Assembly (NCBI GenBank): GCA_043228905.1
Contig: JBHGNT010000001.1
Span: 32,240,001-32,304,000 of the forward strand
DNA from: Azolla caroliniana
Taxonomy: Eukaryota > Plantae > Polypodiophyta
DNA: 64,000 nucleotides
Reading direction: 5' to 3'
The first letter of the stretch is position 1; every line of letters begins with the position of its first letter. Positions 1 through 19,485 of the stretch are shown here, piece by piece. The notes under the pieces are model-generated. The model did not search any database and was not told the origin of the DNA. It was given only the letters and a program-made list of their open reading frames with translations. The position numbers and the translations under genes are program-made.

Positions 1-2
1 GG

Positions 3-767
3 AGCACACCGTACTACCCACAGGCGAACGGGTTAGCGGAGTCCACCAACAAAACGCTGCAGAACATTCTACGCAAAATCGTCAACGAAAACCGGACGGA
101 CTGGGACACAAAGCTCCATAGTGCGCTATGGGCGTACCGAACGGCATAGAAAACAAGTATCCGGACAACGCCGTTCCGGCTAGCATTCGGCTTAGAAGCG
201 GTCATGCCGGTCGAGTTTCAGGTACCAAGCTTACGGATCCAACTACGGGAACGGCTGAATGAAAAGAAGTCGGAGGAAATACGGCTAGCAGCACTATGCG
301 AACTGGAGGAGCAACGGCTGGCCAACATCCTACACATGGAACTGGAGCAACGACGACGGAAAGCGTTCGTTGACCGGCACCGGAAAGGTAATGAGAAAAT
401 GTTCGAAATCGGAAAGCCGGTGCTAGTATTCCAAACGAGGATGGGCAAGATGCCGGGTAAACTCCGGTTCAGATGGACAGGCCCGTATTGGCTGACACGG
501 GAATACAACGGGTCCTATCAGATAGGGACACTTGCCGGGGAAGTAGTAGGCAAGTGGGTGAATGGATTTCGACTAAAGCCCTATAATGGACCGATGCCAA
601 AGAACCCGTTTATGCGGCTCACCGGCACTACACCAGGAACCTGCCCGGGATCGGTACGGATCGATCCGGAAGAAAAAGACGACGGGGAACCCGTAGTAGA
701 GACGAAGGAAGACACGGCAACCCGTAAGGAAAACGGTCAGGGTCCGAAGGGACCTACGGATATGTAA
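3..767 (+). pseudogene. Integrase C-terminal half of the host gypsy element, with a premature stop
   Basis: Frame reads STPYYPQANGLAESTNKTL...WDTKLHSALWAYRTA*KTS...FGLEAVMPVEF...KLRFRWTGPYW. TAG at 147-149 replaces the Tyr of the usual AYRTAYKT motif. Confidence 0.92.
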
Positions 768-787
768 GGTCACACACCGTCATTAAA

Positions 788-820
<33 letters not shown>

Positions 821-892
821 AAAAAATAAAAAAAAAAATCATTAAAAATCGAGGTATGAACGGGTGTGAAAGCGAGGCGCGAAAAGGTACGT

Positions 893-1609
893 TGTCGTGA
901 AGAAAACCGCCCACAAGAGGAATCGGAGGAACAAGGCGTGGGAAACGGCTCTACGCACACACGCGCCCCAAGAAGTACCTAAGGACGAAGTAGGTACATA
1001 CGAGGATCCTAGGTGGGTAGATTCGGTTGGTATGCAGTTAATGCCAAACGGCCTCTTGACGGGCTATAAAAGGGAAGAGGAAGAATAGAAGTGGGTATCT
1101 CGCGCGGAGAGGACGAAGTGCTGCCGAACCGATTTCGGAGCTTCTCTCTCACTCCTGCTTTCTCTGTCTTCTGCTCCATCGCGTACCAGTGCAGGTTTCG
1201 AGGAGGCTTGCGCTGTTCCGTGGAACGCCCCGAGTGCGTCCTGCAGCACCTCCGACCTGTTTTCCCTTCCTGTGCGTCGCGACATACAGGGGTCGGCATC
1301 TGTTCGCCGCCCTGTTCGTTTTCGTTAGTATCTATTTCGTGCCCCACCGTGGGTTGTAATACTTTAGTCTGTTATTTTCTTGCATTCATAAGTACATATC
1401 TTTCGTTGTTGCGTCCATCTGCGTCGGCGTTTATTTGTGATCTCTGTTTGTTGGGCCGTGTCCCTGTGCAATCGTCGGTTCTGCGCAATCGGATCTTCGG
1501 TTCTGTGTAATCGGGTCTCTCTCTCTTACTCCTCTCTCTCTTGCTCTTCGGTTCAAGACCCCCGTGGTCCCTCCTCCTTTCTACACGCAAGGGCGTAGTA
1601 ACCCCGACA
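893..1609 (+). repeat. 5' LTR of the intact gypsy element
   Basis: Direct repeat of 7340-8056; only one difference seen (G1212 vs A7659); TATA-like CTATAAAA near 1064. Confidence 0.97.
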
Positions 1610-1612
1610 TCT

Positions 1613-1630
1613 TGGTGAACCCGACGTGAA
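1613..1630 (+). other. Primer binding site complementary to the 3' end of tRNA-Trp
   Basis: TGGTGAACCCGACGTGAA, 3 nt after the LTR, is the reverse complement of TTCACGTCGGGTTCACCA, the plant cytosolic tRNA-Trp(CCA) 3' end (from memory of plant tRNA sequences). Confidence 0.85.
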
Positions 1631-1652
1631 AGAGGCGGCAGAAGAGCAGAAG

Positions 1653-3779
1653 ATGAGGGGGTCGGATCTCGCAGAGGCCATGGCTTCGGCCGTGGATCGG
1701 ATTGTAAACGCGCGCGAGGGCACCGGTGCCCTCGACAGAGCTATTGAGGCGGTCGTCGGCACGATCGGCCGGTTCGATGGGAAGGATGCCACGAAGTATC
1801 TGGCGTCCTACGGTGCGGAAATGTTAATGCGGGACATTCCGGAAGACAGGCGTCTTGCCGGTTTTCCCCGAGTGGCGATGCCGAGCATCCATGCGGAGGT
1901 GCTCGAGGTGCGGGCGGAGAGCCGTACCTGGGAGGAGTTCGAAGGTCGGCTCCTGGAAAAATACGGACTGGACGACGCGCTCCGGCTTTCGAAGCGAAGC
2001 TTCATGGAGTGGGTGGAGTCTCCCGGGAAAGGAAGAAACGCGTCGGCACTCCTCCGGGAGTTCGAGGAGAACTTCGCGCGCCTTTCGGCGCTTGACAGGA
2101 TGGTCCTGGATACAAGCCGGGTCCTGCTGTTCGTCAAATCGGTTGACGAGAGGGATCGGAGTCACGTGGGCGCCCTGCTAGAAACCGAAGACGGGCTGAC
2201 AGCCGACTGGGCGGCGGTCAAGAGAGCCTGCGGCCGTTTCGACAAACGGCGAGAATGGGAGGATGACAGAGCAACCGGGTCGGGCTCAGTCGCGGCGAGG
2301 AAACTCGAGCCGGCGCAGCCGGTGCGAAGGGAAGAGACTCGGGAGTGGCTGGAATCCGGTTCAGCTACGACCGACGTGATCAGAGGCTCGACTGGAGGAG
2401 CTGCGTTGGAGGAACTGACGAGGGCGATAAAAGACCTCCAAATCGCACAAGCCCGCAGAGAAGGCGGAGGACCTGCTCGTGACCGACGGCCGGCGGCAGG
2501 GAACAGGTGCATGTGGTGCGACGGGGTCGGCCACATCCGAAAAGACTGCGGCGATTTCGCAGAGGCGCTGAGGAACCGGGTGGTGTACCTATGGGAAGGC
2601 CGGGTTCACGCCAACGACACGAGAAGGGCCCTAAACCGAAACGACGGGCGAGGCGGAATGAAGAGGTTGATGGAAGAGGCGGCGGCCCGACATGCGGAAA
2701 CCGTCCACTACTCGGCGTCGGCCGGTATTCGAGTCGGGGGCAACGAGGCCCGAAGAGGAAGCAAAGCCGGATTCTGGCCGACGGTGCTGGAAGGCCTTGC
2801 CGATACGAGGATGAAGAGGGAGGAATCGGACCGTGCGGAGAAACGGGTACGGGAGATGACCGGGTGGAGCGACCCGGTCGAGGAGAAGACGGGCTTCGTG
2901 GAAGCCGCTTGCCGGAACTACGAGGCTCTGGTAGAAGAGAAGCGGGTGGGGAAACCCGGGACGACCGGGCCCTCACAACGATACGAGACCCGGTCCGGGC
3001 CACGACGGGACGAAGCCGGCGGGGCCGATACGCAAGATAAACCCCAGAAGGGCGGGTACCGTCTGGGGACGGAGATAGAAAGAACCACGGACTTACGAAA
3101 GGTCCTGGAGGAACGGATCCTCGACAGCAAGGTGGAGCTGTCGCTACGGGAGGTGCTCGGAATCGCGAAAAAAGAGTTCCACGACTCCATCGTGGACTTG
3201 GTCAAGCGGAAGAGGCTGTCGACGGAGGAGGAACCGGAAAGACCGGTAGAGGTGCGGACGGCGCACCTGGACGACATGGCGCTGGAAGACGAGTGGGCGG
3301 AGAGCCACTATTCGCGGCCACACTGGGCCCGAGCGACCACGGAAACCCCGGTAAAGATCGGCGATGTCCAGGAACCGGTAGTAGCTTTGGTGGACCACGG
3401 ATCGGAAATCAACCTGATGTCCATGGACTTCTATAAGAAGGGCAAATGGCCGATCAACACCAAGCACGGGTGGAAGATAAGGGCGGCGACGCGCGCCACC
3501 GAGGAACTTCACGGGGCCTGCCCGAATGTACGGGTCAAGATCGGCGATGTCGAGATAGACCAGCACTTCTTCGTGCAGGAGTCGTCATCGCACCCCGTCA
3601 TACTGGGAGAGCCGTACATCACGGCGGCTCGAATGGAGACCAAGGTGCTGGACAACGGTTCGGCCTATGCGCGGGTCAAGAGCCAGGACGGGCGCCATTC
3701 GGTCCAGTTTTTGACGGTTAGGCCGAACCACGAGCGTAACCGCGACTCCCTCGGTTCCGATAACCGAGAGGATTTTTAG
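1653..3779 (+). CDS. gag: Gag with CCHC zinc knuckle fused to aspartic protease
   Basis: CMWCDGVGHIRKDC knuckle; protease motif ALVDHGSEINLM and VILGEPY. First ATG at 1653 (ORF track starts at GTG 1626). Confidence 0.9.
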   Translation: MRGSDLAEAMASAVDRIVNAREGTGALDRAIEAVVGTIGRFDGKDATKYLASYGAEMLMRDIPEDRRLAGFPRVAMPSIHAEVLEVRAESRTWEEFEGRLLEKYGLDDALRLSKRSFMEWVESPGKGRNASALLREFEENFARLSALDRMVLDTSRVLLFVKSVDERDRSHVGALLETEDGLTADWAAVKRACGRFDKRREWEDDRATGSGSVAARKLEPAQPVRREETREWLESGSATTDVIRGSTGGAALEELTRAIKDLQIAQARREGGGPARDRRPAAGNRCMWCDGVGHIRKDCGDFAEALRNRVVYLWEGRVHANDTRRALNRNDGRGGMKRLMEEAAARHAETVHYSASAGIRVGGNEARRGSKAGFWPTVLEGLADTRMKREESDRAEKRVREMTGWSDPVEEKTGFVEAACRNYEALVEEKRVGKPGTTGPSQRYETRSGPRRDEAGGADTQDKPQKGGYRLGTEIERTTDLRKVLEERILDSKVELSLREVLGIAKKEFHDSIVDLVKRKRLSTEEEPERPVEVRTAHLDDMALEDEWAESHYSRPHWARATTETPVKIGDVQEPVVALVDHGSEINLMSMDFYKKGKWPINTKHGWKIRAATRATEELHGACPNVRVKIGDVEIDQHFFVQESSSHPVILGEPYITAARMETKVLDNGSAYARVKSQDGRHSVQFLTVRPNHERNRDSLGSDNREDF

Positions 3780-6700
3780 AGAGGGCTGCCAAGGCGTGGG
3801 GCCGCGACAGTCCGGACACCCCGGGAAACCCCCACACCTGTACGATAAAACCGAAGGAACCTTGTACCATAGGTAGGGGATTTTTGTTCTCCGACAGCGG
3901 AGCGTGTACGATAGTCGGCATCGGCGGCCGAGAGAAGACAAAGGCGGAGGGGAGACTTCGAGCGTGCGGAGTTCTCGGCCCTGACGAGGAAATCAACGGA
4001 GCCGTGGAGGCGGTCTCATTCGACGACACCTTGGGAATGTTGGGAAAGGTAGTCGAAGAAGGCCTTAACGAAGACCGGACGATACCGGTGTGTTCCGAGG
4101 AGATGTACGAAGTCATCGCGGACTTCGGTCGAGGGCTCGAGTCAGTTCGGACGGCCCGCGTAAGCACCAAGTACAAGACTGTGGACCGGAAGGTAAGGCC
4201 AGTCGCGGCACCCTTACCGGAGGACAGCGCGTCGAGAATCAAAGGGGTTGCATCGGACCCTAGTCTACGAGATCCGGCCTGCATAGGGCACACCTTCACC
4301 GACGAGACGCTCCGAGAGCTCAAAATCGGTGGGGGCGGGTTCCTACTGCCGGCGGAGGAAGACCGGTTTCGGAGAATGCTCGGAAGGCACGGGAAAGCCT
4401 TCGCATTCTCGCCGGAGGAAATCGGGTGCGTTGACCCGACGATCGTGGAGCCGATGGTGGTATTCACGGTACCGCATGTACCATGGAACCTCAAGCCAAT
4501 CCCGGTTCCGAGAGCTCACATCCCGAAGTTGATGGAGCTGCTGAGGCAGAAAGTTGATATGGGAATTCTCGAGCCGTCGAGCGCCCCATATTCGAATCGA
4601 TGGTTTACCGTACCGAAGAAAAACGGTTCGTTGCGCTTCATCCAGGACCTGCAGCCGGTCAATCGAGTGACCATTCGGAACGCAGGGATCGGACCGACCG
4701 TAGACGAGTTCGCGGAGGCCTTCGCCGGAAGGTCAATTTACTCGGTCGGGGATCTATACTCAGGGTACGACCAGTTCCAGCTAGCCGTGGAGAGCAGAGA
4801 CATTACGACGATGCGAACTCCCCTCGGCCTAGTTCGGATGTGTACACTGCCGCAAGGAGGGACCAACTCGGTGGCCCACATGGTGAATGCGATGAACAAG
4901 GTTCTGAGGGACTGTATCCCGGACATCACCATGCCGTTTCTGGACGACATCCCGATCAAGGGATGCCCGGTAGAAGAGAAGGACGAGACGATCGGGCCGG
5001 ACGGATGCCGGCGATTCGTGGCGACGCACATCGACGACTGCGAGAAGGTGCTGCGAAGGCTAGAGGATGCGAGACTCACCTTCTCCGGGGAGAAGTCGGC
5101 CTTCGGGCAGTCAGAAATCATGGTGGTCGGACACCTGTGCGGACCGTATGGCCGGAAACCGTCTCCGGCAAAGGTAGAAGCCATCTCCGCGATGAAGCCC
5201 GACTGCAGCTCGGTCACGGAAGTACGGAGATTCCTGGGGGCATGCGCGTTCTACCACATATGGATCCCGCATTACGCACACGTCGCGGAGCCACTGTACG
5301 GGTTGCTGAAAAAGGGGCGAAGGTTCGAATGGCTAGACGAGCACGCGGAATCGGTCCGGAAGCTGAAAGAGGCCCTTGCAGCGGCACCGGCACTCCGGAA
5401 GGCGGTATACGGGAAGGGTACCCCGGTATTCATAACGGTGGATACCAGTCCGACCGGGATCGGATGGGTCGTGAACCAGGAAGACGAGGACGGCAATCGG
5501 TTTCCGATCCGATTCGGCGCGAAAGTCCTCAGTGAACGGCAGCGAGGATACGCCCAGGTTAAACGCGAACTCTGGGGTATTGTTTCGGCGGTTAAGGCCG
5601 ACAAAGACTACCTGATAGGGACAGAAGTGATCATCGAGACAGATTGCCTGCCGATTCTCGGTATGGTTTCCGGATGCGCGACTCCGGACCTGGCGATGCT
5701 CAGGTGGATAGCGTACATCAAGTCCCTGGACCCGGAAATACGACACATTTCCGGGAAAGACAACGCCATGGCCGACATGCTTTCGAGGGCGAGGTTCGAC
5801 GACGAGGGCGGCATGGTTTCGGAAGACGAAGAAGTCGGCGTGGATTTCTTCGAGGCGGCACACATAACGACCGACGGAATGAGCACTCCGGCGCTTAACG
5901 AGTTCGACGCGAGCAAGTACGACGGGGAGTGGCTGCAGATCGGCGGGTTTTTGAAGACAATGACGCCTGATGCGTCATGGACGAAGGACGAGGCCAACCG
6001 GATCCGGAAGAAAGCATATCGATTCTTTCTCCGGGATGGCTACCTATGGAAGCACCCGAAGAAGAGGGACGGCGCTCCGCTCCGGGTGGTGGCGATGAAG
6101 GAAGAACAGGAGGAGCTGCTGACGGCCTACCACGACAGCCCTTGGGCTGGACACCGTGGAACGTGGGCGACATTTGAGAAGCTGAAGGGGAAGTACTGGT
6201 GGCCGGGATTGTACCGGGACGTGCATCGGTTCGTGTCGACTTGCGAGAGTTGTCAGATGCACTCGATAGTCCGACACCGGGATGGGCTTCGCCCTACGTA
6301 CCCTCCGACTATCCACTTCAAATGGATGGTAGATCTAGTGACGATGCCGATGGGGGTAGGACAGATGCGGTATCTGGTCCTAGCGCGGGAAGACCTGACG
6401 AACCAGGTGGAAGGCCGAGCCCTTCAGAACAAGACGACCGCGGCCGTGTGTCGGTTCCTGATCGAGGACGTGATATGCCGGTACGGGTGCGTCGGGAAGA
6501 TCGTGGCTGACCGGGGGGAGTTGGACGCCGAGGAGGCCGCGGAGCTGTTCGATCGGCTGGGAGTCAAACTCTCGCTCACCACTGCGTACAACCCGGAGGC
6601 GAATGGAAAGGTGGAGCGCGGACACGGGCCGATCGTTAAAGCGCTGGTTCGGGCATGCGGGGGCCAAGTCGGTAACTGGCCGCGACTTCTACCTTATGCT

Positions 6701-7267
6701 TTGTGGGCCGACCGGACTACGCACAGTTCGGTAACCGGGTACATGCCGACAGAGCTCATGTTCGGCCAGAAGCCGATCATGCCGGTGGAACAAACAATCT
6801 CCTCATGGGCGACGGTCGACTGGAGGGACGAGATGAGCCGGGAGGACTTGTTGGCAGCGCGTATACGACAACTCGAACGGAGACCGGAGGACGTGGAGAC
6901 GGCTGCAGAAAGGATCCGAGTGGCGAGGATAAAGAACAAGGCCAGGTTCGACCGAACGCACCGACTCCGACCGAAGAAGATCGAACAAGGTGACTGGGTG
7001 CTCGTCTACGACAGCAGCCTCGACAACCAGCACCGATCAACGCGGAAGTTCGCACGGAGATGGTTCGGGCCGTACACGGTACAGAGCGCCAACGACAACG
7101 GGACGTATCATCTGGCGGAGCTCGACGGTACGAGAATAGCGATACCCGTGGCCGGGAAGAGGATCAAAGCTTTCAAGAAGCGGCACGACGACGAACCCGA
7201 CCCGATTCTCCTGGACAGCAGCGACGACCGATCCGAGGCCGAGGAAGGGCCGGCAGGCGAAGAGTAA
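3770..7267 (+). CDS. pol: Pol (RT-RNase H-integrase), probably expressed by -1 frameshift from gag-PR
   Basis: RT motifs DLYSGYDQ, LPQG, FLDD; RNase H VDTS, RELWG, ETDC, ADMLSR; integrase HHCC (HDSPWAGH..CESC), VDL/ADRG/GKVERG and WFGPY. The -1 frame is open from the GGATTTT heptamer at 3770. Confidence 0.93.
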   Translation, partial: GFLERAAKAWGRDSPDTPGNPHTCTIKPKEPCTIGRGFLFSDSGACTIVGIGGREKTKAEGRLRACGVLGPDEEINGAVEAVSFDDTLGMLGKVVEEGLNEDRTIPVCSEEMYEVIADFGRGLESVRTARVSTKYKTVDRKVRPVAAPLPEDSASRIKGVASDPSLRDPACIGHTFTDETLRELKIGGGGFLLPAEEDRFRRMLGRHGKAFAFSPEEIGCVDPTIVEPMVVFTVPHVPWNLKPIPVPRAHIPKLMELLRQKVDMGILEPSSAPYSNRWFTVPKKNGSLRFIQDLQPVNRVTIRNAGIGPTVDEFAEAFAGRSIYSVGDLYSGYDQFQLAVESRDITTMRTPLGLVRMCTLPQGGTNSVAHMVNAMNKVLRDCIPDITMPFLDDIPIKGCPVEEKDETIGPDGCRRFVATHIDDCEKVLRRLEDARLTFSGEKSAFGQSEIMVVGHLCGPYGRKPSPAKVEAISAMKPDCSSVTEVRRFLGACAFYHIWIPHYAHVAEPLYGLLKKGRRFEWLDEHAESVRKLKEALAAAPALRKAVYGKGTPVFITVDTSPTGIGWVVNQEDEDGNRFPIRFGAKVLSERQRGYAQVKRELWGIVSAVKADKDYLIGTEVIIETDCLPILGMVSGCATPDLAMLRWIAYIKSLDPEIRHISGKDNAMADMLSRARFDDEGGMVSEDEEVGVDFFEAAHITTDGMSTPALNEFDASKYDGEWLQIGGFLKTMTPDASWTKDEANRIRKKAYRFFLRDGYLWKHPKKRDGAPLRVVAMKEEQEELLTAYHDSPWAGHRGTWATFEKLKGKYWWPGLYRDVHRFVSTCESCQMHSIVRHRDGLRPTYPPTIHFKWMVDLVTMPMGVGQMRYLVLAREDLTNQVEGRALQNKTTAAVCRFLIEDVICRYGCVGKIVADRGELDAEEAAELFDRLGVKLSLTTAYNPEANGKVERGHGPIVKALVRACGGQVGNWPRLLPYALWADRTTHSSVTGYMPTELMFGQKPIMPVEQTISSWATVDWRDEMSREDLLAARIRQLERRPEDVETAAERIRVARIKNKARFDRTHRLRPKKIEQGDWVLVYDSSLDNQHRSTRKFARRWFGPYTVQSANDNGTYHLAELDGTRIAIPVAGKRIKAFKKRHDDEPDPILLDSSDDRSEAEEGPAGEE

Positions 7268-7326
7268 AGGCGGGCCGGTTTTCTCCGTGCCAACTTATTT
7301 TGGCGCATGCCGGTGGATGCGCGGTT

Positions 7327-7339
7327 AGGTGGGGGCGGA
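7327..7339 (+). other. Polypurine tract of the intact gypsy element
   Basis: AGGTGGGGGCGGA immediately before the 3' LTR. Confidence 0.85.
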
Positions 7340-8056
7340 TGTCGTGAAGAAAACCGCCCACAAGAGGAATCGGAGGAACAAGGCGTGGGAAACGGCTCTA
7401 CGCACACACGCGCCCCAAGAAGTACCTAAGGACGAAGTAGGTACATACGAGGATCCTAGGTGGGTAGATTCGGTTGGTATGCAGTTAATGCCAAACGGCC
7501 TCTTGACGGGCTATAAAAGGGAAGAGGAAGAATAGAAGTGGGTATCTCGCGCGGAGAGGACGAAGTGCTGCCGAACCGATTTCGGAGCTTCTCTCTCACT
7601 CCTGCTTTCTCTGTCTTCTGCTCCATCGCGTACCAGTGCAGGTTTCGAGGAGGCTTGCACTGTTCCGTGGAACGCCCCGAGTGCGTCCTGCAGCACCTCC
7701 GACCTGTTTTCCCTTCCTGTGCGTCGCGACATACAGGGGTCGGCATCTGTTCGCCGCCCTGTTCGTTTTCGTTAGTATCTATTTCGTGCCCCACCGTGGG
7801 TTGTAATACTTTAGTCTGTTATTTTCTTGCATTCATAAGTACATATCTTTCGTTGTTGCGTCCATCTGCGTCGGCGTTTATTTGTGATCTCTGTTTGTTG
7901 GGCCGTGTCCCTGTGCAATCGTCGGTTCTGCGCAATCGGATCTTCGGTTCTGTGTAATCGGGTCTCTCTCTCTTACTCCTCTCTCTCTTGCTCTTCGGTT
8001 CAAGACCCCCGTGGTCCCTCCTCCTTTCTACACGCAAGGGCGTAGTAACCCCGACA
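7340..8056 (+). repeat. 3' LTR of the intact gypsy element
   Basis: Direct repeat of 893-1609, followed by TSD ACGT. Confidence 0.97.
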
Positions 8057-9452
8057 ACGTAGTGGGCATTTAAGAGACGCCACGCTACTTAATACTAAAT
8101 TGGTACACGACGTGTGCATGCTCGAAAAAGGCGCCAAAACGCACAAAGAAGAAACAGAACGCATGGAGACCTTTTCATTTCGCGAGCCAAGAAGCACAGA
8201 AGCACCAAGACAGTGGAAGCTGAGCAAACGCGAACCTGCACGCAGAGAACCCCCGCGCTCAGAACGCTCTCTCTCTCGCTCTCACTCTCATCACCACTCT
8301 ACCTCGCCATCTTCTCTCGACCTTGAAGCAGACATGGAACCACAAACACTGTCGGAAGCGGCCAGGAAATGGTTCAGGCAAAACGGACTGGAGGGGTTCT
8401 TGGCCATCATGGAGGCACCGCCGCACAGAGAAGCCGACCGGGTCATCAAGGAGCTCGCCACAGAGGTCATCACCGAGGAAGCGATCCGCGCGCTAACAGG
8501 CCTTCCGGAGGGAGGAATCTTTCAGATCGATAACCCAACCTCGGAGCAACTCACCCGATATTTCGGTGAGTACTCTGTTGCCGGCAAAGGCTATCGGACG
8601 CAGGGCGGCGAAGATCCGCTATTCAGGGAGATAGCTCGAGTGCTCCATGAGTACGGTCACGTGTACCCCCGACCCCCTGTCATGCCAAAAAATCGGGCAG
8701 GGATGATCATAGCCACCTATGAAGGGGTCAAGGTGGACTGGCCGGTGTTGATTGCAGACGGGTTGTGCATGGCAATCGACATGGTACGAGGGAAGGACGG
8801 CAAGGAGGGCCGGAAGCTGTGGCACGCCGTAGCTCAATGGATAACATTGCTCGTGCCGCCGGTCGAGACCGTCCAGCCAAAGAAGCGGCCAAGAGTATCG
8901 GAAGGAAGCACCTCGAAGCCGGCGTCCAAACGACAGCAGCTGCTGGCGTCGAAGGCGACGAAAGGGAAGAAACGGGTCCCAGAACCGGAGGAGGTGTCAC
9001 CGGTCCGACCCGTCAAGATAACCTTACGGAGACCAGGACAGAAGGAACCGGAACCCTTGACGGCACAGAAACATGCCGTGACACAGGAAGAGGAAACGGA
9101 GGAGCCAGAAGAGCACCTCCAACGACGGTCGAGAAGTAGGACCGCCGAGACAGGAGGGGAGCGGTCGTACCCGCGAGAGGCAGAAACGCCCCCAACTCAA
9201 CCTGAGCAAACCACAAGGGAAGAACCGGAACCGGTGCGTAGGGAACCGGTCTTGTCGACTTCTATAGAAGAAGTCAGTCCAACGGCTCCGGAAACGGCAA
9301 GAACCGGAACTCAACAGCCGGCGAGCCCAGCCAGAGCACACGGCGGCCAAGGAGTAGAACCAGAACGGCATATGCAGGCAATCAGGCCAGACAATTCCAC
9401 GGTGAATGAGCCGACCCGACCAGTACAGCAACAGGGCACCAGTAGCATGTGG

Positions 9453-10073
9453 TGTTGCAATTCCGTGCTCGGCCACAACCGAGGAACAGGATCGATTCGC
9501 AGAAAACGGGAAATACAAGAATGCACGAAGAACAACAGAGAGAAAGGTCCACTGGATGTTTTACGTGGAAAACCCTAAATGGGAAAAAACCACGGGAGTC
9601 CTCAAACTCCAACTATCACTATGAACAGGGATGTACACTGGTGAAGCTACAAGGCAACAACCTTGAGCTCACTGTCTTCGCCACAGGCGGCGGTAATACA
9701 CAGAGGCAACGACCTCTTCGTCTCTCACTCTCTCTCTCGGCTGCTCTCGCTTCTCATGAAAAAATGAGCAACAACATAAAACTGTTTGCCCTAAGTCATA
9801 TTTATACACATATGACTTTCGGGCTATTTACAAATATAGCCTCAAGGGCTCTTGGCAAACATATTCACAAATATGTCTCCGCATCCGGATCTCTCTCCGG
9901 GTACATTCATCATCCGGTTCCGTAACCGGGGTCTTCATCATCCGGCTCCGTAACCGGGGTCTTCATCATCCGGTTCCGTAACCGGGGTCTTCATCATCCG
10001 GTTCCGTAACCGCAACCGGGCTTGCCGTCATTCATCTCCGGACATCCCATCCGGAGGGACCGAAATCCCAACA
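9453..10073 (-). repeat. 3' LTR of the copia element
   Basis: No difference from 14192-14812 seen by eye; preceded on the minus strand by PPT GAAGGGGGAG (10076-10085). Confidence 0.96.
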
Positions 10074-10083
10074 AACTCCCCCT

Positions 10084-13000
10084 TCACTTCGGCATGGGAT
10101 GTCTCTCCAGTCCGATCCTCTTCCGGCATGCTTCCAGCTTGTCGGGTGTGAGCACCTTGGTCAGCATATCTGACCCGTTCTCGTCCGTGTGGACCTTCGT
10201 CAGCTCGAACTCCTTGTCTTCTATCCTTTCCCGGATCCAGTGATATCTTCGCTGGATGTGCTTCGTCCGGGAGTGATAAGCCGCGTTCTTCGCAAGGTGG
10301 ATGGCACTCTGACTGTCGCAGTAGAGTCGGTACTCCTCCTGCTGGATACCGAGCTCTCTAATGAAGTCCTTCATCCATATTATTTCCTTGCCGGCTTCAA
10401 CAGCTGCCATGTACTCCGCCTCCGTGGTTGACAACGCAACCGTCTTCTGCAGCCTCGACTGCCACGAAACGGCTCCCCCTGCATAGGTCATCACATACCC
10501 TGATGTGGACCGGCTGGTATCTGCATCAGCCGACATATCCGAATCGGTGAAGCCGTCGAGTTCAGGCTTACCGGAGCCGAATCGGAGGCACACGTTTGCC
10601 GTGCCCTTCAGGTATCGGAGTATCCACTTGACCGCGTTCCAATGCTCTTTGCCGGGATTGCTCATGTACCGGCTCACCACTCCGACTGCGTATCCAATGT
10701 CTGGTCTTGTACACACCATTGCGTACATCAAGCTTCCGACAGCAGAGGCATATGGTACTTTCATCATGTCCTCTTTCTCAGCCTTTGTCCTGGGGCTTTG
10801 CTTGCTGGACAGCTTGCAGTTTGCCGAGAGGGTTGATCCGACCGGTCTTGCTTCCGACATGTTGAACCGTTGAAGCACCTTTGTCACGTACTTCTCCTGT
10901 GACAGCCACAACTGCTTCTTGCTCCGGTCCCGGATGATGTGCATCCCTAGTATTTGTCTCGCCGGACCCAAGTCCTTCATTGAGAAGGTTCGGTGAAGAG
11001 CCTTCTTCAGCATCCGTATCTTGACCTGGTCCCGTCCGACGATCAACATGTCGTCCACGTACAAGAGGAGTATTAGAGAGTCTCCTCCTTCGAACTTCTT
11101 CACAAACACGCAGTGGTCAGACTGCGTTTTGTGGTACCCTTCGTCGGTCATGAAGGAGTCGAACTTCCGGTACCATTGCCGGGGAGCCTGCTTCAGTCCG
11201 TAAAGGCTCTTCTTCAACCGGCATACCAGGTGCTCCTTCCCTTTCTTCTCGAATCCTTCCGGTTGCTGCATATAGATCTCTTCTTCGAGGTCACCGTGAA
11301 GGAATGCCGTCTTCACGTCCATCTGTTCTACCTCGAGGTCCATGCTTGCTGCTATGCTCAGCACCGTCCGGATGGAGGTCATCTTCACTACCGGGGCAAA
11401 TATCTCGTCGAAGTCGACGCCCTTCTTTTGCTGAAACCCCTTCACCACGATCCTGGCTTTGTATCTCGGGGGGTTTCCGGCATCTCCCGGTTTCAGCTTG
11501 AACACCCACTTGTTTCGAAGTGCCCGCTTTCCTTTCGGCAACTCCACAAGTTCATATGTGTGATTCTCATGCAGGGAATCCATCTCGTCCTGCATGGCAC
11601 TCAACCACCTGCGGCTCTGGGTGTCATGTTTTGCTTCTTCAAAACTTTCCGGCTCCCCCTCGTCTGTTAGCAGCACGTGCTCTGGTTCCGGAAATCTCCG
11701 GGGGGCCCTTCTCTCTCTTAGAGGATATCTCCGTTCGGGAGCTTTGGTAACCGGTTCTTCCGATTCTTCTTCTTCATCGGAATCCATTTCGGGATCGGGG
11801 CCGGTTCCGGTATCATTTTCATCTTCTTCGGCCGGTTCTGTTTCTTCACCGTCTTCGGCCGGATCCTCGAGTGCTAACCGGTCCCTTGCCGGTCGGGACT
11901 GCTCCTCGTAGAGTTGATCCTCACCGGTCGACTTTGAGCTCTTCATCTTCTTCTCCGACTCCCAGTCGGCGAGTGTCTTGTCCTCCATGAAGATGATGTC
12001 TCGACTCCTGAATATCTTCTTGTCGACCGGGTCCCATACTCGGTAGCCGAACTCGTCGTCACCGTAACCGAGGAATATGCATGGCCGGGTCTTTGGATCT
12101 AGCTTTCCTCTCCGGTCCTTTGCCACATGCACGTATGCGAGACACCCGAACACCTTCAGATGCCGGTAGGATACTTTCCTACCGGTCCACACTCTCTGCG
12201 GCGTGTCTCCGTCCAAAGGTACTGAGGGTGATCTGTTTATCACGTATGTCGCCGTCGACATCGCCTCAGCCCAAAACCCCTTGGGTAATTTCGCATGCGC
12301 CAGCATACTCCGGACCCTCTCCATTATGGTCCGGTTCATCCTCTCGGCCAGCCCGTTCAGTTCCGGCGTCTTCGGCACAGTAAACTCGAGCCGGATTCCC
12401 TTCGAGCGACAGTACTCCTGGAACTGCCCCCGGTATTCCCCTCCGTTATCCGCTCGTATCGCTTTCAGCTTCTTGCCGGATTCTCTTTCCACTCTCGCGT
12501 GGAGTTCTTTGAAGACGGACAACACTTGGTCCTTTGTCTTCAACGGTGCCGTCCACAGCTTCCGGCTGTGGTCATCAATGAATGTCACGAAGTACTGGGC
12601 TCCGCCATGTGACTTCGTTTCTACCTGACACACATCAGTGTGCACCAGCTCCAATGGTGCGCTACGTCTCGTCGGTGGCCTTGAGTGGAAGGAGGTCCGG
12701 TTTTGCTTACCGGCCAGGCAGTCGGTGCACTTCTCCAGGTGCACATGCTTCACTGGAATAAGGTTGTCTTCTGCAAGCCTCTTCATCCCCTTCTCACTCA
12801 TGTGGCACAGTCTCTTGTGCCACAGCTCACCGGCAGTGTCGGCTGCCACGTTCAGCTCCTCCGGACAGAGCCGGGAATTCATCAGGTACAGGGTGTTGAC
12901 CTTCCGGGCCCGAGCCACTATCAGGCTCCCTTTGCTGAACTTCATGACACCGTTCCGGATGCTACCCGTGTAGCCTTCATCGTCTAGCCTCCCGGCCGAA

Positions 13001-14160
13001 ATCAGGTTCAATCGAACCTCCGGAACGTGTCGAACATCCTTCAGCAGCATTTTGCATCCGGTCGGGGTTGTCAACCACACGTCTCCTATGCCGGCAATCC
13101 GGCACGTACCTTCATTCCCCATCCGAACACAGCCATGCTCACCGGCTGTGTAGGATGAGAAGTATCTTCTCTCCGGGGTCAGGTGGAACGATGCTCCGGA
13201 ATCGACCACCCAGGTCGTCTCATCGCCGGCTACGTTTAGTTCACCTTCTTCGGTGATGAGCATGATCTCTTCCTCACTTGCCGCGAGTGCCGTTGTTCCT
13301 TTCCGGTCCTGCCCTCGCCGATCCGAACCTCTCCGGTCCGTGGCTCCCCGGTATGCACCGTTTCTCTCCGGTGACTTCTTCGAATCGGTGTCGTCGGCTC
13401 CGTTGTCCTTTCGGTAATGCCGACAATTCTTCCGGAAGTGCCCCGGCTTCCCACAGTGGAAGCATGTGGGCCTTCCTCTTGACTGCGACCGGGTCCCCGA
13501 CTTCTCCCGTCTTTGCGGACTCCGGTTCCACTGTCTTCCCCGTTCCGATTCGGTAAGCAGCGCCTTCGAGTCGGAGACCGGTTCTTTATCTCTCCGACGC
13601 GCTTCTTCGTTCAAAATACTTGTCTTTACCGTTTGTAGAGACAAGTTATCTTCGGTGCAGGAGGTGCTGAGAGTCACCACCAAGTTCTCCCAGCTGTCCG
13701 GCAATGTACACATCAGGATGATGGCTTGCATTGCATCCTCCAACGGGAACTTGATCGCCGCAAGCTGGTTCACGAATCCCATGAACGTGCTTACGTGTTC
13801 CACCATACTTTCGCCGTCCCGGTACTTGAGGTTCACTATCTTTCTCATCAGGGAGGTCCGGTTCAACGCATTCTTCCTCTCGTAGAGGCCCGACAGCTTC
13901 CTCCACATCTCATATGCGTTGGTGTCGTTCGCCACGTGTTGTAGAACGCTCACGTCGACGTATTGCCGAATGGTTGCAACGGCTTTCCGGTTCAGAAGCC
14001 TCCACTCCGTCTCAAGTACCCCCTTGGGTATTTCCGACCTGTCGATCGGTTCATACAGGTCCCGAACAATGAGCAGATCCTCCATCTTTATCTTCCAGTC
14101 GGCGTAATTCTGCGCATTCAGCACCATCATGCCCGGAGGCCCACTACCGGCGCCTTCCAT
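10084..14160 (-). CDS. Copia gag-pol polyprotein (Gag-PR-INT-RT-RH)
   Basis: LNAQNYADWKIKMEDLL gag, CFHCGKPGHFRKNC knuckle, WVVDSGAS protease, WHKRLCH GAG-pre-integrase, HTDV/ADNGGEY/NGLAER integrase, QMDVKTAFLHG and YVDD RT, ADADTSRSTSG RNase H. The true start is probably ATG 14160 (MEGAGS). Confidence 0.97.
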   Translation of the reverse strand: MEGAGSGPPGMMVLNAQNYADWKIKMEDLLIVRDLYEPIDRSEIPKGVLETEWRLLNRKAVATIRQYVDVSVLQHVANDTNAYEMWRKLSGLYERKNALNRTSLMRKIVNLKYRDGESMVEHVSTFMGFVNQLAAIKFPLEDAMQAIILMCTLPDSWENLVVTLSTSCTEDNLSLQTVKTSILNEEARRRDKEPVSDSKALLTESERGRQWNRSPQRREKSGTRSQSRGRPTCFHCGKPGHFRKNCRHYRKDNGADDTDSKKSPERNGAYRGATDRRGSDRRGQDRKGTTALAASEEEIMLITEEGELNVAGDETTWVVDSGASFHLTPERRYFSSYTAGEHGCVRMGNEGTCRIAGIGDVWLTTPTGCKMLLKDVRHVPEVRLNLISAGRLDDEGYTGSIRNGVMKFSKGSLIVARARKVNTLYLMNSRLCPEELNVAADTAGELWHKRLCHMSEKGMKRLAEDNLIPVKHVHLEKCTDCLAGKQNRTSFHSRPPTRRSAPLELVHTDVCQVETKSHGGAQYFVTFIDDHSRKLWTAPLKTKDQVLSVFKELHARVERESGKKLKAIRADNGGEYRGQFQEYCRSKGIRLEFTVPKTPELNGLAERMNRTIMERVRSMLAHAKLPKGFWAEAMSTATYVINRSPSVPLDGDTPQRVWTGRKVSYRHLKVFGCLAYVHVAKDRRGKLDPKTRPCIFLGYGDDEFGYRVWDPVDKKIFRSRDIIFMEDKTLADWESEKKMKSSKSTGEDQLYEEQSRPARDRLALEDPAEDGEETEPAEEDENDTGTGPDPEMDSDEEEESEEPVTKAPERRYPLRERRAPRRFPEPEHVLLTDEGEPESFEEAKHDTQSRRWLSAMQDEMDSLHENHTYELVELPKGKRALRNKWVFKLKPGDAGNPPRYKARIVVKGFQQKKGVDFDEIFAPVVKMTSIRTVLSIAASMDLEVEQMDVKTAFLHGDLEEEIYMQQPEGFEKKGKEHLVCRLKKSLYGLKQAPRQWYRKFDSFMTDEGYHKTQSDHCVFVKKFEGGDSLILLLYVDDMLIVGRDQVKIRMLKKALHRTFSMKDLGPARQILGMHIIRDRSKKQLWLSQEKYVTKVLQRFNMSEARPVGSTLSANCKLSSKQSPRTKAEKEDMMKVPYASAVGSLMYAMVCTRPDIGYAVGVVSRYMSNPGKEHWNAVKWILRYLKGTANVCLRFGSGKPELDGFTDSDMSADADTSRSTSGYVMTYAGGAVSWQSRLQKTVALSTTEAEYMAAVEAGKEIIWMKDFIRELGIQQEEYRLYCDSQSAIHLAKNAAYHSRTKHIQRRYHWIRERIEDKEFELTKVHTDENGSDMLTKVLTPDKLEACRKRIGLERHPMPK

Positions 14161-14176
14161 TTTCTGTGTTACCGTC

Positions 14177-14188
14177 GCTCTGATACCA
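14177..14188 (-). other. PBS for initiator tRNA-Met
   Basis: TGGTATCAGAGC on the minus strand, 3 nt inside the 5' LTR boundary. Confidence 0.95.
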
Positions 14189-14191
14189 ATT

Positions 14192-14812
14192 TGTTGCAAT
14201 TCCGTGCTCGGCCACAACCGAGGAACAGGATCGATTCGCAGAAAACGGGAAATACAAGAATGCACGAAGAACAACAGAGAGAAAGGTCCACTGGATGTTT
14301 TACGTGGAAAACCCTAAATGGGAAAAAACCACGGGAGTCCTCAAACTCCAACTATCACTATGAACAGGGATGTACACTGGTGAAGCTACAAGGCAACAAC
14401 CTTGAGCTCACTGTCTTCGCCACAGGCGGCGGTAATACACAGAGGCAACGACCTCTTCGTCTCTCACTCTCTCTCTCGGCTGCTCTCGCTTCTCATGAAA
14501 AAATGAGCAACAACATAAAACTGTTTGCCCTAAGTCATATTTATACACATATGACTTTCGGGCTATTTACAAATATAGCCTCAAGGGCTCTTGGCAAACA
14601 TATTCACAAATATGTCTCCGCATCCGGATCTCTCTCCGGGTACATTCATCATCCGGTTCCGTAACCGGGGTCTTCATCATCCGGCTCCGTAACCGGGGTC
14701 TTCATCATCCGGTTCCGTAACCGGGGTCTTCATCATCCGGTTCCGTAACCGCAACCGGGCTTGCCGTCATTCATCTCCGGACATCCCATCCGGAGGGACC
14801 GAAATCCCAACA
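14192..14812 (-). repeat. 5' LTR of the copia element
   Basis: Direct repeat of 9453-10073. Confidence 0.96.
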
Positions 14813-16410
14813 TGTGGCTACGGTGGGTAGGCGAGCAAATCGCCGGAGTGGTCGAGTATATAGAGGCGGAAGAGAGAGCGCACCAGGAACGGTTGCTCGT
14901 CACAACCGTAGATCTAGAGACGGCCCGGTCCAGAATCCGGAGCCTTGAACAAGACTTGGACAGGGTCACAAGGGAAACACAAGTCCAAGCACCGGTGACT
15001 CCGGGCAATGTACAGAATAAAGTGTCAAATCACCCTGTACATAGCAATCAGACCCCGGCAACGGAAACCGTTCCGGAGGGAAATGCGGCACAAGCCCAAG
15101 AGCTTGCGGATTTAAAGGATGAGCTAGCTGCCCAAGAAGCGCTGAGGAGCCGCGAAAGAGAATTGAAGACGGCAGCGGAGGCAGAACTCAAAAAGACTGC
15201 TGAGAATCTACGCCGGGCCGAGGAGAGCTTACGGAAAGGCCACCAAGCATACGACCGGCTCAAGGAGGAGAAGGAGAAAATGCTGCAAGAGAAGGAGAGG
15301 CTCCGGAGGAACGCCGAAACAGAAGTAGAGAGCCTGAAAGAGGAACTCCGGCAGGTAAAGGACCGGGAGGACCGGAACCATCGCCAGATCAACGGCAAGC
15401 TCAAACAAAAAACGGAGGAATTTGAGCAATTGCACCGGGAGTATAAACGGTTGCAAACGGAGCACAAGGAACGGACGGATGAGCTCCGGCAAGCAGTTGA
15501 TCGGACCGCAACCGCATTCGCTAAGGAACAAGCGGAAAACAGAAGACGGTTGGAAGAGGCGGAGAAGGTTCGGACAGAGCTCCTCAGGCAACAGCAGGCG
15601 GAAAAAGAAAGAGCGGCAGAGGTACTGCAGAGGCTGCAAACGACATATCAAGGGCAGCTGACGCGCTACAGAGAGCAGGCGGAGGATACGGCAAACCTCA
15701 TCAAGCAGTTGAAGGAGGAGCGACAAGTGGTGGAAAGCAGAGCTCAAATGGGAGCAAGTCGCATCCAAGATATAATGCGGGCCTGGTTGAACCAGACCAA
15801 GAGCTTGATTGACAACGGTTCCGTCAAATGGTGGACCAAGTGGGCCACGAACGCGGCGGAACTCCAATTGCTCCGGGCTGACGTAGAGAACCGGCGGAAG
15901 GAGGGAGATGATTGCTATATGCTGACTTCCGAAGACTTCACCGGCATAAGGGATGAGCTTGCCGAAGACTTTCAAGCCTTGGCAGAGGACCAACTAGAGC
16001 AAGTCCGGCAACTTGTAGCTCAGCTGGACGACGACAGGCTGGAGGCGCAGATCCAGTTTGAAAGCTACGAGAGGTCCCGGCTCCGGGGAGAGAAAGAACG
16101 AGAACCAGTTACGGTCAACCTCAGTGATGAGGAACCGTTACTGGAAGGAGACCGAACCGGAAGCAGTCAAACGGAGATGCCGGAGCCAGAGAGACAAACG
16201 GAGCAGCCGGAGTCAGCGAAGCAAACGGAGCAGCAGCAGCAAGCAGAGCAGCCGGCGCAACCTCAGTCCCAACCGCAACCACAGCAGCAGCAGCAAGCAC
16301 AGCCGCAACAACCACAACCGGAAGAACAAGTGGAAATTCTTGAACAAAGTAATTTGGACAATTTGGGTGAACAATGAAGGGGCCGAGAAGGGTTCGACGT
16401 ACAAGGTACT

Positions 16411-16427
16411 GTCCCACGGGCGTGCCA
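16411..16427 (+). other. Sense copy of the tRNA-Arg(UCU) 3' end (a PBS when read on the minus strand) abutting the LTR
   Basis: GTCCCACGGGCGTGCCA vs plant tRNA-Arg(UCU) 3' end GTCCCACCGGGCGTGCCA (from memory; one C missing). The reverse complement TGGCACGCCCGTGGGAC lies 2 nt from the LTR edge. Confidence 0.75.
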
Positions 16428-16429
16428 TG

Positions 16430-16849
16430 TGTTACCGGCCGGCAAGGAGTCCAAATTACGGAGTGAAGGAATTAATTAGATATGGTTGTAGATAAGCATA
16501 GTGTGGACGGACGGACTGGAAACGGTATGCCGTTCCAGATCCGGACGGATCCCGAATAGGTGCGAGAGGCACCGTTTTGTACTACGGGCCGGAAACCTAT
16601 TTAAAGGCCCGGACCCTATTGTAATGACAGCGGATAATTAGTAGAGCTTATGTTGTTTATACTTCTGTCTTGATTTCCGTTCTGTAATCACTATTATATC
16701 TTACGCGTGTAATTAACCAAAGCAATCTAATAGTGTAACCTACGTAAGTCGGTGTAATCGTTGAATCTTAATCCTATGCCGTAATCACCCTTTGGTGAAG
16801 TGTCTCCGTGACACCTTGTGTTAGGCCTTGTCCGGCTAAGAGAGTAACA
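16430..16849 (+). repeat. LTR of the host gypsy element (420 bp)
   Basis: Inverted termini TGTTAC/GTAACA, TATA-like CCTATTTAAAGG near 16596, T-rich 3' part; LINE ORF1 sequence resumes at 16850. Confidence 0.75.
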
Positions 16850-18171
16850 TCTGTTAGATCAAAAGAGAAGCCTATAGCCGGCAACTTGTTTCGTTCAACA
16901 ACAATTACATAAACCCTTAGCCCTAGAGCTTCCCCTTGTGGCAAATCCGTCAGTCTTGTGAGAGCTTGCTGACTAAACCAATATCCCTTGTCCAGCATGT
17001 CCCCTTCCAATATTTTTGACCTAACAAATTTGATTGGAACTCTAACATTTGCCTCCTTACTTCTTTCTCCCACTGCTTGCAACTTAATTTCAGGAGTGTT
17101 GGGTGAGCTTTCTTGACATCTCCCATTACGCAGCCAGTCTTTCATTGCTCTCAGTCCCATACTTCCACTTTTACCAATAGAGGAAGGGGAGCCCATGGTA
17201 GATTCTTGTCTAAGTGTTCCACTTTTTAACATGACCTCGGGTGTACATACTACCACCTCTTCAACAATAGTTTTCTTTGAATCTTGTGCTAGGTCCTCCT
17301 CTTCTTGCAACACTTCAAAACGATTTCTCAAATCTGCATGAGGTGTATTCATGTTTACTTCTCGTTGCAAGCCATTTTTCCGTCCCGAAACACGAGTCCA
17401 GCCATTTGCACTATTGTTCGCCTTCTCAGCCCCAATGAGGTTGCTCAATCTTGTCTCCCTTATCGGTTCTTGCTTATCTAACAACCCAATATCCTTCTCC
17501 CCCCTTACATTTCTATTAATCTTCCTTGGACATTCCTTGGCAATGTGGCCCTTTCTTTTACAATAGAAACATTGGCCAGGTAAACCCTCATATTCCACCT
17601 CCACATCTATCAATCTTCCCTCCACATCATGCACTCTAATTAGGGAGGGAAGTGTGGACAAACTTTGCACAAGCACCCTAATCTTAGGGGAGTCTCGGAT
17701 TTTGTCTACCATGGATGCCTTGGAAGGACAAATTGTGCCAATCTTCTCCCCAATATTTTGCATCAACGGATATAAGTGTCGAGGTAGATTAGGGAATACC
17801 ATAGATATCACCATGGGATTACCAATTTTCTTAGCCTCATCCATAACATTGAAATTAGCATGCCACTCCAACAACAAAGCTCTTCCGTATTTGAGTTCTA
17901 CACATTTCATATTGATAATTTGCGATACATCACTCCCTTCGTTCACTTCGATGTGAAAGAAATTTCGACCCATATTATCCACACTCTTTATATGTGGGAC
18001 CTTATCCATTAAAGCTACTTGTAGCATATCACGGACCATACCTCTGTTGGGCCTACCACCAAATAGCTTACAAATGAATGAACATTTTTTTAATCTTTTG
18101 ATCTCGGCATTTAAGATTGTACTTTCTTCTTCGGACAGAAAAACATCCAATACATCGGAAGTCTCCACCAT
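16850..18171 (-). mobile_element. L1-type LINE ORF1 (DUF4283-like RRM region plus CCHC knuckle), truncated by the gypsy insertion
   Basis: ICKLFGGRP...MGRNFFHI...LEWHANF...FPNLPRHLY...IGEKIG...VEYEGLPGQCFYCKRKGHIAKECP are typical of plant L1 ORF1. The ORF runs into the LTR at 16849. Confidence 0.85.
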
Positions 18172-18422
18172 TTTCAAATCCTTATCATCATCTCCTCTCG
18201 TGCATGTATTATTAGTTTGCAAAACATTTATTTACAAGTTTTGCTTAAGGAACCATGTACATTCAAGTTCTCACAACCCTATGATGTGCATGGCAAATAT
18301 CTCAAAACTAATGATATGATTGGATCGCTATTTAGGGGCAAGTTATACATTAGTGCAAGCAATTAACATGGTATGTGTAATGTAGATGGAGATTATAGCA
18401 TAAATAATCTAGTTAAAAAATA

Positions 18423-18735
18423 GGGAAAAGTACCAGTATACCCCTAGAAGTTCGTCTATTTACCAGAATGCCCTTGGAAGTTTCAAATTTACCAAACTAC
18501 CCCTATGTCCAAAAAATTACACTTTATAGAGTAATTATACACTCAAATATTTGGTAAATAGGGCTAGTTCGGGTCCATTTCTTCCATCTTTGGTAAATAG
18601 GGCTTGTAGATTTGAGTGTATAATTACTATATAAAGTGTAATTTTTTGGACATAGGGGTAGTTTGGTAAATTTGGAACTTCATGGGGCATTCTAGTAAAT
18701 AGACGAACTTCCAGGGGTATCTTGGTACTTTTCCC
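18423..18735. mobile_element. Mutator-like MITE (313 bp)
   Basis: ~125-bp imperfect TIRs starting GGGAAAAGTACC; perfect 9-bp TSD TAAAAAATA (18414-18422, 18736-18744). Confidence 0.92.
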
Positions 18736-19485
18736 TAAAAAATAATGCATATTGTGTAAGGCAATCTCCAGATTGGTCATGATTCGAGCATCATACATCG
18801 TTTTATTTATTTATTGAGATTGATCATGGCGCATTGTGTGAACCATCTTAATTGGATGCAACAATCAATTGATGATCAAATATGTACATATGATGAGCAA
18901 AAGTGACGAATTTCAAAAGCAAATAACAACTACGGGCGAGCATATGGGCTAACTACCTTCCATATGGTGAGGGAACCATGACTCTGGTTTTCCATTGGAG
19001 TCGTCAATAAACAATTGATTCAAAGTTGGTATAACGGGTTTGGTTGGTTATTGGCTCAACTTCACGTCGACCTCCACACAAGCAAGAGATGTGTCGGCAA
19101 ATTGTTTCTCGGTGAAAGCGAGAAGTCACGTGTGTGGTCTTGTCTGATATAATATGTACTCGGGGATCGATTTTCTCGTGCAATCGATTGATCGGCCGAT
19201 CGAGAGTGGCTGGCCGGCCAACAGACTTGAATGAATGGGAACAGATGCATGCAGTCTAAACACTACACTACATAATAATCTGTCTGCCTCTGCCTCTGCC
19301 TCTTGTTTCTCTGTCTCTGTCTCTGTCTCTGTCTCTGCTTGTGTCCGGCAGTCAGTGTGATAATGATTGATTATCTCGGCAACTTGCCACGTGTGTGTCA
19401 AGCAATGGAGACAAAAAAATAATTGTTCAAGGTGTGCGACAAAAAATAATTGTTCAAGGTTTTAAGTAGGCAGAGGTGGCGGCAA

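Follow-up and report, generated by a model that had tools for sequence, protein, structure and literature searches.

A gypsy-type LTR retrotransposon of Azolla caroliniana carries a copy of a tRNA 3′ end 2 nt before its 3′ LTR, at the position where a polypurine tract (PPT) is expected. We consider it likely from the sequence data that the element belongs to an Athila-like lineage that lacks a PPT and has tRNA-complementary sites at the inner flank of each LTR, and in which a second tRNA, tRNA-Arg(UCU), anneals to the minus-strand cDNA and primes the plus strand. The underlying architecture, composed of LTR, sense primer-binding site (PBS), gag, pol, an extra ORF (eORF), a hairpin with the tRNA-like end, 2–4 nt and LTR, is close to certain. 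A broader picture, which we favour with less assurance, is that of an old, recently active gypsy lineage of seed-free plants, which has dropped the PPT, primes both strands with host tRNAs and uses a structured, split minus-strand site by which the primer is protected from the RNase H of the element. Retroviruses and LTR retrotransposons are regarded as sharing the step of plus-strand priming from the PPT, and the variation known in priming is that of the minus strand.

The outer element of the window and its tRNA-like block

The window, the whole stretch of 64,000 nucleotides that was analysed, contains at positions 1–16849 a nest composed of an outer gypsy element and two elements inserted in it, all located inside a LINE ORF1. 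The following features were assigned:

1..767, plus strand: C-terminal half of the integrase of the outer element, with an in-frame stop at 147–149
893..8056, plus strand: nested Phygy-like gypsy element, unrelated to the outer element; LTRs 99% alike, 4-bp TSD ACGT
8118..9452, plus strand: 5′ piece of the eORF of the outer element
9453..14812, minus strand: nested copia element, which splits the eORF; LTRs 100% identical, TSD TGTGG, normal PBS and PPT
14813..16377, plus strand: 3′ piece of the eORF of the outer element; low-complexity, Glu/Gln/Arg-rich
16390..16397, plus strand: copy of the T-stem/T-loop segment of the tRNA, GGGTTCGA; predicted second pairing arm for a tRNA on the minus strand
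16398..16410, plus strand: 13-nt insert with a 4-bp hairpin (16399–16402 with 16406–16409), which covaries and forms a loop outside the predicted duplex with the tRNA
16411..16427, plus strand: copy of the tRNA-Arg(UCU) 3′ end with CCA; putative primer-binding site on the minus strand, at the place of the PPT
16428..16429, plus strand: 2-nt spacer TG between the CCA and the LTR
16430..16849, plus strand: 3′ LTR, 420 bp, TG...CA, with the ends TGTTAC/GTAACA
16850..18231, minus strand: LINE ORF1 (zinc knuckle), interrupted by the insertion

The remainder of pol, the gag gene and the 5′ LTR of the outer element precede the window; only the 3′ LTR is present, and no partner LTR was found within the window. 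The integrase shares 80.5% identity over 154 aa with the integrase of the full polyprotein P0123. The 5′ piece of the eORF matches L019 at 59% and L008, L010 and L078 at 36–40%, and no Pfam family was matched by the 3′ piece. A long A-rich tract lies between the integrase stop and the eORF (780–850). The LTR contains a TATA-like box at 16598–16605 and TGTAA motifs on the plus strand only. Its start at 16430 is backed by a 2319-nt contig (public run X9, record 26), the match of which begins there; a start upstream of 16411, which the initial annotation had named as a possible objection, was not found. The positions given in that annotation for GGGTTCGA, the 17-mer at 16411–16427, the 2-nt gap and the LTR, as well as the plus-strand orientation of the integrase and the eORF, all hold. 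A 5-bp TSD probably has its right half at 16850–16854. In three of four public runs, LINE copies lacking the insertion extend upstream of 16850, which fits such a TSD without proving it.

The copia insertion is very young, with identical LTRs and a single long open ORF. Phygy was first defined from a moss. The Phygy-like element of the window is near-intact and encodes a DUF4100 gag, with its own PBS and a G-rich PPT. The target preference of Phygy is NCGN (PMC6317226). Outside the nest, an inverted repeat is located at 18421–18737 (128 nt, 93% complementary, 61 nt apart; MITE-like). The best named full-coverage match of a neighbouring 2-oxoglutarate dehydrogenase gene is a protein of the fern Adiantum (88%), with other named plants at 82–86%.

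A reference tRNA-Arg(UCU) with encoded CCA was found by ARAGORN in the locus L002. The block of the window is identical to this tRNA over 11 nt from the 3′ end; then one C is missing, so that 17 of the 18 terminal nucleotides align. The stretch 16390–16427 thus corresponds to the 3′ end of tRNA-Arg(UCU) minus one C, plus 13 nt inserted after the T-loop. The initial annotation had described the 17-mer as a match to the CCA end of tRNA-Arg(UCU), which stands for the 11 terminal nucleotides and is not exact over all 17. The chance of an 11-nt exact tRNA end lying 2–4 nt from an LTR is roughly estimated at about 1e-4 or less, with about 50 tRNA types allowed. The terminal 10-mer of the block occurs once in the window, both strands counted. 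No tRNA was detected in the window by ARAGORN or Rfam, and the block has no 5′ acceptor strand and hence is no full tRNA mimic. On comparison with its relatives, the block is evidently a family trait and not a chance junction.

No PPT was found before the LTR of the window, nor in L008, L014 or L121. The purine stretch at 16376–16392 contains an interrupting CC and stops 37 nt short of the LTR, in agreement with the earlier description of a purine run detached from the LTR. It is not conserved: within the 30 nt preceding the block, purine runs reach at most 2–8 nt over 66 scored copies, a test that discriminates poorly, as the longest run is only 5 in the control PPT of the Phygy-like element and 10 in that of the copia element, and in which the 20 nt before the LTR are fixed by the search motif. 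Internal purine runs of at least 11 nt are present 400 nt or more from the LTR.

The family in public runs, metagenomes and a sister element

As a check, the initial annotation had suggested reading the inner flank of the other LTR, where a TGG-type PBS would speak for dual priming and a polypyrimidine tract for an inverted coding region. Contigs from eight public runs were aligned to the region. In X2, X4, X6 and X12, loose ends behind the LTR end continue through a short spacer into a TGGCGACCAC-type PBS, and an LTR variant in X7 likewise leads into it. Among the loose-end rows listed for X5, X9 and X11, none reaches the PBS; the rows listed do not exclude PPT-bearing copies. The remaining loose ends enter unrelated flanks, as expected of 3′ LTRs. 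The deepest bin is 16416–16442 in all four runs scored, expressed as summed contig depth and not as copy number. Many unlike loose ends occur before 16390 and after 16433–16436. Together with the depth peak, this indicates that the block is common to subfamilies differing in their eORF ends and LTRs.

A metagenome scan with the 17-mer gave at least 122 matches with 31 of 64 parts covered. Among the matches listed, 70 belong to the lineage (68 loci in 15 assemblies, probably of one campaign); having been selected by the 17-mer, they do not give the share of copies with a PPT. The other 52 matches listed were dropped, as they showed neither an LTR start after the motif nor homology to the element proteins. 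The spacer between block and LTR measures 2 nt in 60 of 71 copies (the window included), 4 nt in eight and 8 nt in one, with two unscored. Of the 40 listed matches with at least 500 nt of upstream sequence, 25 have an integrase or eORF in sense orientation ahead of the block, and none has an antisense one. In L008, an integrase, an eORF of 1170 aa, the block and the LTR follow each other uninterrupted. The contigs tile into LTR-PBS-gag and integrase-eORF-block-LTR, with everything in sense orientation. In viral contigs no family member was found; one search there returned 12 matches without retroelement homology or tRNA.

The other end of the element is reached in the same material. Among the 27 listed matches with at least 600 nt of downstream sequence, the LTR continues into a TGG-type PBS in 13, to which L072 can be added, and into other flanks in another 13. 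The last one, L058, is a head-to-head join and was excluded from the PBS count; at 700–1900 it contains two related 3′ ends joined across a GA/CT repeat, which is either an assembly artefact or an inverted duplication. Such transitions from LTR to PBS in short-read contigs result from the collapse of LTRs. In L019, L043, L047 and L036, the PBS leads into a sense gag, which belongs to the polyprotein with an integrase 80% identical to that of the window. Three 5′ PBS types were seen with one type of 3′ block, which implies that pairing between the RNA's own ends is not required. The tRNA of L002 shows the tRNA for one of the 5′ PBS types; the remaining two we take to be those of Arg(UCG) and Arg(ACG).

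In L002 (1190–1265), the full-length tRNA-Arg(UCU) runs antisense to the element, and at the start of the contig it directly adjoins the tail of the eORF. It may be a primer tRNA copied end to end in reverse transcription. Two degenerate tRNA-Lys-like sequences lie downstream of a family LTR in L060 (1062–1137 and 2756–2828). L014, L070, L052, L029 and L035 are units of about 2.3–2.5 kb with LTR, PBS and block and are likely to be non-autonomous derivatives; no homology to the family gag or pol was detectable in them. L014 is a circular non-coding unit of 2285 bp, and it retains both the PBS and the block without coding sequence, as expected of a cis signal.

A motif-blind scan of genome contigs with protein patterns gave seven loci, six of which (L122–L127) are too short to reach an LTR. 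The seventh, L121, holds a complete element with identities of 56% to P0126 and 93% to P0127. Its LTRs, at 4991–6630 and 17097–18749, are 93% alike. The third 5′ PBS type lies 2 nt inside the 5′ LTR and is followed by gag and then by pol in frame with the eORF. At 8726–16057, pol and eORF form one open frame of 2444 codons; they are separate ORFs in L008 and the window. The L121 eORF gave no significant BLAST match to the window eORF. Ahead of the 3′ LTR, L121 has a GGGTT segment, then a hairpin of 8 bp that differs in sequence, and a tRNA-like CCA end 2 nt from the LTR. Of the last 15 nt of this end, 13 are identical to the L002 tRNA (compared by eye), and its one-base gap is not at the position of that in the window block. 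The nearest purine run of at least 11 nt lies 558 nt away. The flanks CAATA and ATATA differ at two of five positions, so that no exact TSD is present. L121 is found on a single contig of a bacterial bin, in which frameshifted ABC-transporter genes are joined to a stretch rich in plant retrotransposons; this is likely to be a chimeric assembly. The outcome at the inner flank is the same in public runs, metagenomes and L121: the other LTR flank carries a TGG-type PBS.

The hairpin inserted in the block occurs in four main complementary forms across the family. Its covariation, with 93.6% of the cells paired and 49 double changes, was reached in none of 500 shuffles and closely approached by no slid control, with counts that are inflated by related sequences. 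The outer stem, formed by the T-stem copy and CCCAC, did not covary, as the search had fixed its 3′ side. When the L002 tRNA was cofolded with the minus strand, with RNA energies as a proxy for the RNA:DNA hybrid, the 3′ end was predicted to pair, the hairpin to be looped out and the T-arm segment to pair in both cases tested, the window and L008. The commonest T-arm change is T>C (18 of 29 scorable rows), which preserves pairing with the tRNA, as G·U, only in the case of a minus-strand partner. This count comes mostly from one subfamily, and other T-arm changes (6 G>T, 3 G>C and others) break the pairing.

Affiliation and comparison with known systems

The nearest full polyproteins contain gag, RT, a single RNase H and integrase. 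The domain order is gag-PR-RT-RH-INT in P0123 and L121; the window itself holds the integrase only. In P0123, P0125 and P0126, the catalytic motifs of the RNase H appear intact (read by eye). The archaeal-type RNase H (aRH) families PF13456 and PF00075 were not found in P0123, the L121 pol, P0127, P0130 or P0131, and PF13456 was present in the control P0155. No chromodomain family was matched by P0123, the L008 integrase or L121. The N-terminus of the eORF resembles Transposase_32/ATHILA clusters at lead level only, with high but not decisive scores. A quick RT-RH tree was built from the 42 of 75 rows covering at least 330 aa, without curated references. In this tree the lineage and P0127, P0130 and P0131 form one branch with a support of 98, and this branch stands in an unresolved fork with Asteraceae and pine rows, aRH rows and Riccia rows. 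By the definitions in PMC6317226, the lineage is an OTA element without aRH and so Athila-like, not Tat. The Tat-lineage label drawn from the initial annotation is not supported.

The Athila clade has the same gag-PR-RT-RH-INT order, a single RNase H without aRH, a sense eORF after pol and a non-Met tRNA PBS (PMC6317226). A spacer of several nucleotides between 5′ LTR and PBS is also shared; it measures 3–6 bp in Brassicaceae Athila (bioRxiv 10.64898/2026.03.20.713144). The Brassicaceae elements differ in having a conserved junction of PPT and 3′ LTR and an Asn/Asp PBS (same source), whereas the lineage described here has the tRNA-like block and no PPT. In the quick tree it stands on a separate branch from the Asteraceae and pine rows. 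The Tat clade (TatI–III, Ogre and Retand) is likewise non-chromoviral with a long 3′ region, and tRNA-Arg is among the primers used by non-chromoviruses (PMC6317226). Tat elements are defined by the second, archaeal-type RNase H, however, which is absent from the P0123 and L121 polyproteins. In addition, the extra ORFs of Retand are antisense (PMC11963269), whereas the eORF of the element described here is sense.

A parallel to the block is found in the bipartite primer-binding sites of Ty3 and Ty1, in which the tRNA pairs in two segments, separated in Ty1 by a small loop (PMC5371799). Those split sites are located on the RNA and serve minus-strand priming, with the PPT kept; here the split site would lie on the minus-strand DNA at the position of the PPT. 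Self-priming in Tf1 and Tcn1 and half-tRNA priming in copia, Ty5 and Bianca are also departures from standard priming (PMC6317226, PMC5371799), but they concern the minus strand only, and in none of them is the plus-strand PPT replaced. Narrow literature searches outside subscription journals yielded no description of a tRNA-primed plus strand or of an inverted PBS replacing the PPT. Drosophila micropia has reportedly been described with a tRNA-related site near its 3′ LTR. Neither PBS motif occurs in 17 kB of supplement text of PMC6317226.

Proposed plus-strand priming and its alternatives

The left end of the LTR is set by the plus-strand primer's 3′-OH in retroviruses and LTR elements (bioRxiv 10.1101/2022.12.06.519325). 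The CCA of the block ends where this 3′-OH must be. We propose that sense RNA would be transcribed from the 5′ LTR and that a tRNA at the 5′ PBS would prime minus-strand DNA in the usual way. Once the first jump has occurred, the RNA would be removed by RNase H and the complement of the block bared. The 3′ 17–18 nt of the tRNA would pair there, with the hairpin looped out and the T-arm segment pairing beyond it. RT would extend from the CCA end, which would fix the left LTR boundary 2 nt off. RNase H would finally remove both tRNAs, and the integrase would trim the spacers. The block would be inherited from the RNA and never be re-copied from the tRNA, which would explain the fixed one-base gap and the inserted hairpin. 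Dual-tRNA priming was one of two models put forward in the initial annotation. The architecture on which it depends is strongly supported, and the priming step itself is read from the anatomy of the element.

The main objection to this mechanism is that a tRNA paired to DNA is a substrate of RNase H, and a hybrid of 15–17 bp could be cut before extension. In Ty3 RT, the two active sites are about 13 bp apart (PMC5371799). The one-base gap might protect the hybrid, but its position differs in L121. If the mechanism is true, RT/RNase H can use a DNA-paired tRNA primer without destroying it, which would offer a handle on how RNase H selects and spares primers. Both strands would then depend on the supply of tRNA-Arg and on tRNA-fragment silencing. 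Annotation tools that require a PPT miss or mis-orient such elements.

The same 3′-OH position would be obtained if the element supplied the primer in cis, its own RNA mimicking a tRNA end beside the hairpin and either surviving RNase H or being cut after the CCA by a tRNA-handling enzyme, with no second tRNA involved. The use of an RNA remnant as primer follows normal logic, and the hairpin could fold on either strand. The remnant is almost identical to the tRNA, and sequence cannot separate the two as primer. This explanation leaves unaccounted for the tRNA identity over 17 nt and the T-arm, which is retained in L121 and in subfamilies that differ in their LTRs and eORFs. The block is only about half purine, and the 5′ acceptor strand that a full tRNA mimic would need is missing. 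We therefore judge a cis primer to be unlikely.

Somewhat less probable again is a block that does not prime. It would pair instead either with the 5′ PBS or with the 5′ half of the primer tRNA once that is freed, and so link the two RNA ends during strand transfer or dimerisation; the plus-strand primer would have escaped recognition. The last 10 nt of the block are exactly complementary to the 5′ PBS in many subfamilies, bipartite PBSs exist in Ty1 and Ty3 (PMC5371799), and the internal purine runs mentioned above could be considered, distant as they are from the LTR. However, the 5′ PBSs of the window subfamily and of L121 share only 4 nt with the block complement, and the block is kept in both. 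Furthermore, the left end of the LTR needs a definer, and only the CCA sits there.

The two ends of the element are formally symmetric, and the block is the longer and more structured tRNA match. It could accordingly be asked whether both ends are tRNA-primed on a packaged RNA that is antisense, or of either strand, so that the block would be the minus-strand PBS. The orientation of TATA-like boxes and TGTAA motifs is sense, as it is in the two control LTRs of the window (palindromic TATATA boxes not counted). The whole tRNA copy of L002 lies on the apparent 5′ PBS side, where read-through of the minus-strand primer would land, in one contig in which the LTR is not seen. With these observations an antisense genome becomes quite improbable, and our preference for tRNA priming of the plus strand on a sense genome is retained.

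The second model of the initial annotation, a coding region inverted relative to an ordinary pair of PBS and PPT, draws on the fact that, read on the minus strand, the block looks like an ordinary PBS. It is rejected as very improbable, since the other inner flank is a PBS and not a polypyrimidine tract in both the loose ends and L121. A chance junction, in which a separate minus-oriented element is truncated against the outer element, was named there as a refuting case and might be suspected in a window that is a nest of three insertions without the partner LTR; it is hardly credible, since the same junction is present in the uninterrupted L008, in the complete L121 and in 25 of the 40 scorable listed contigs.
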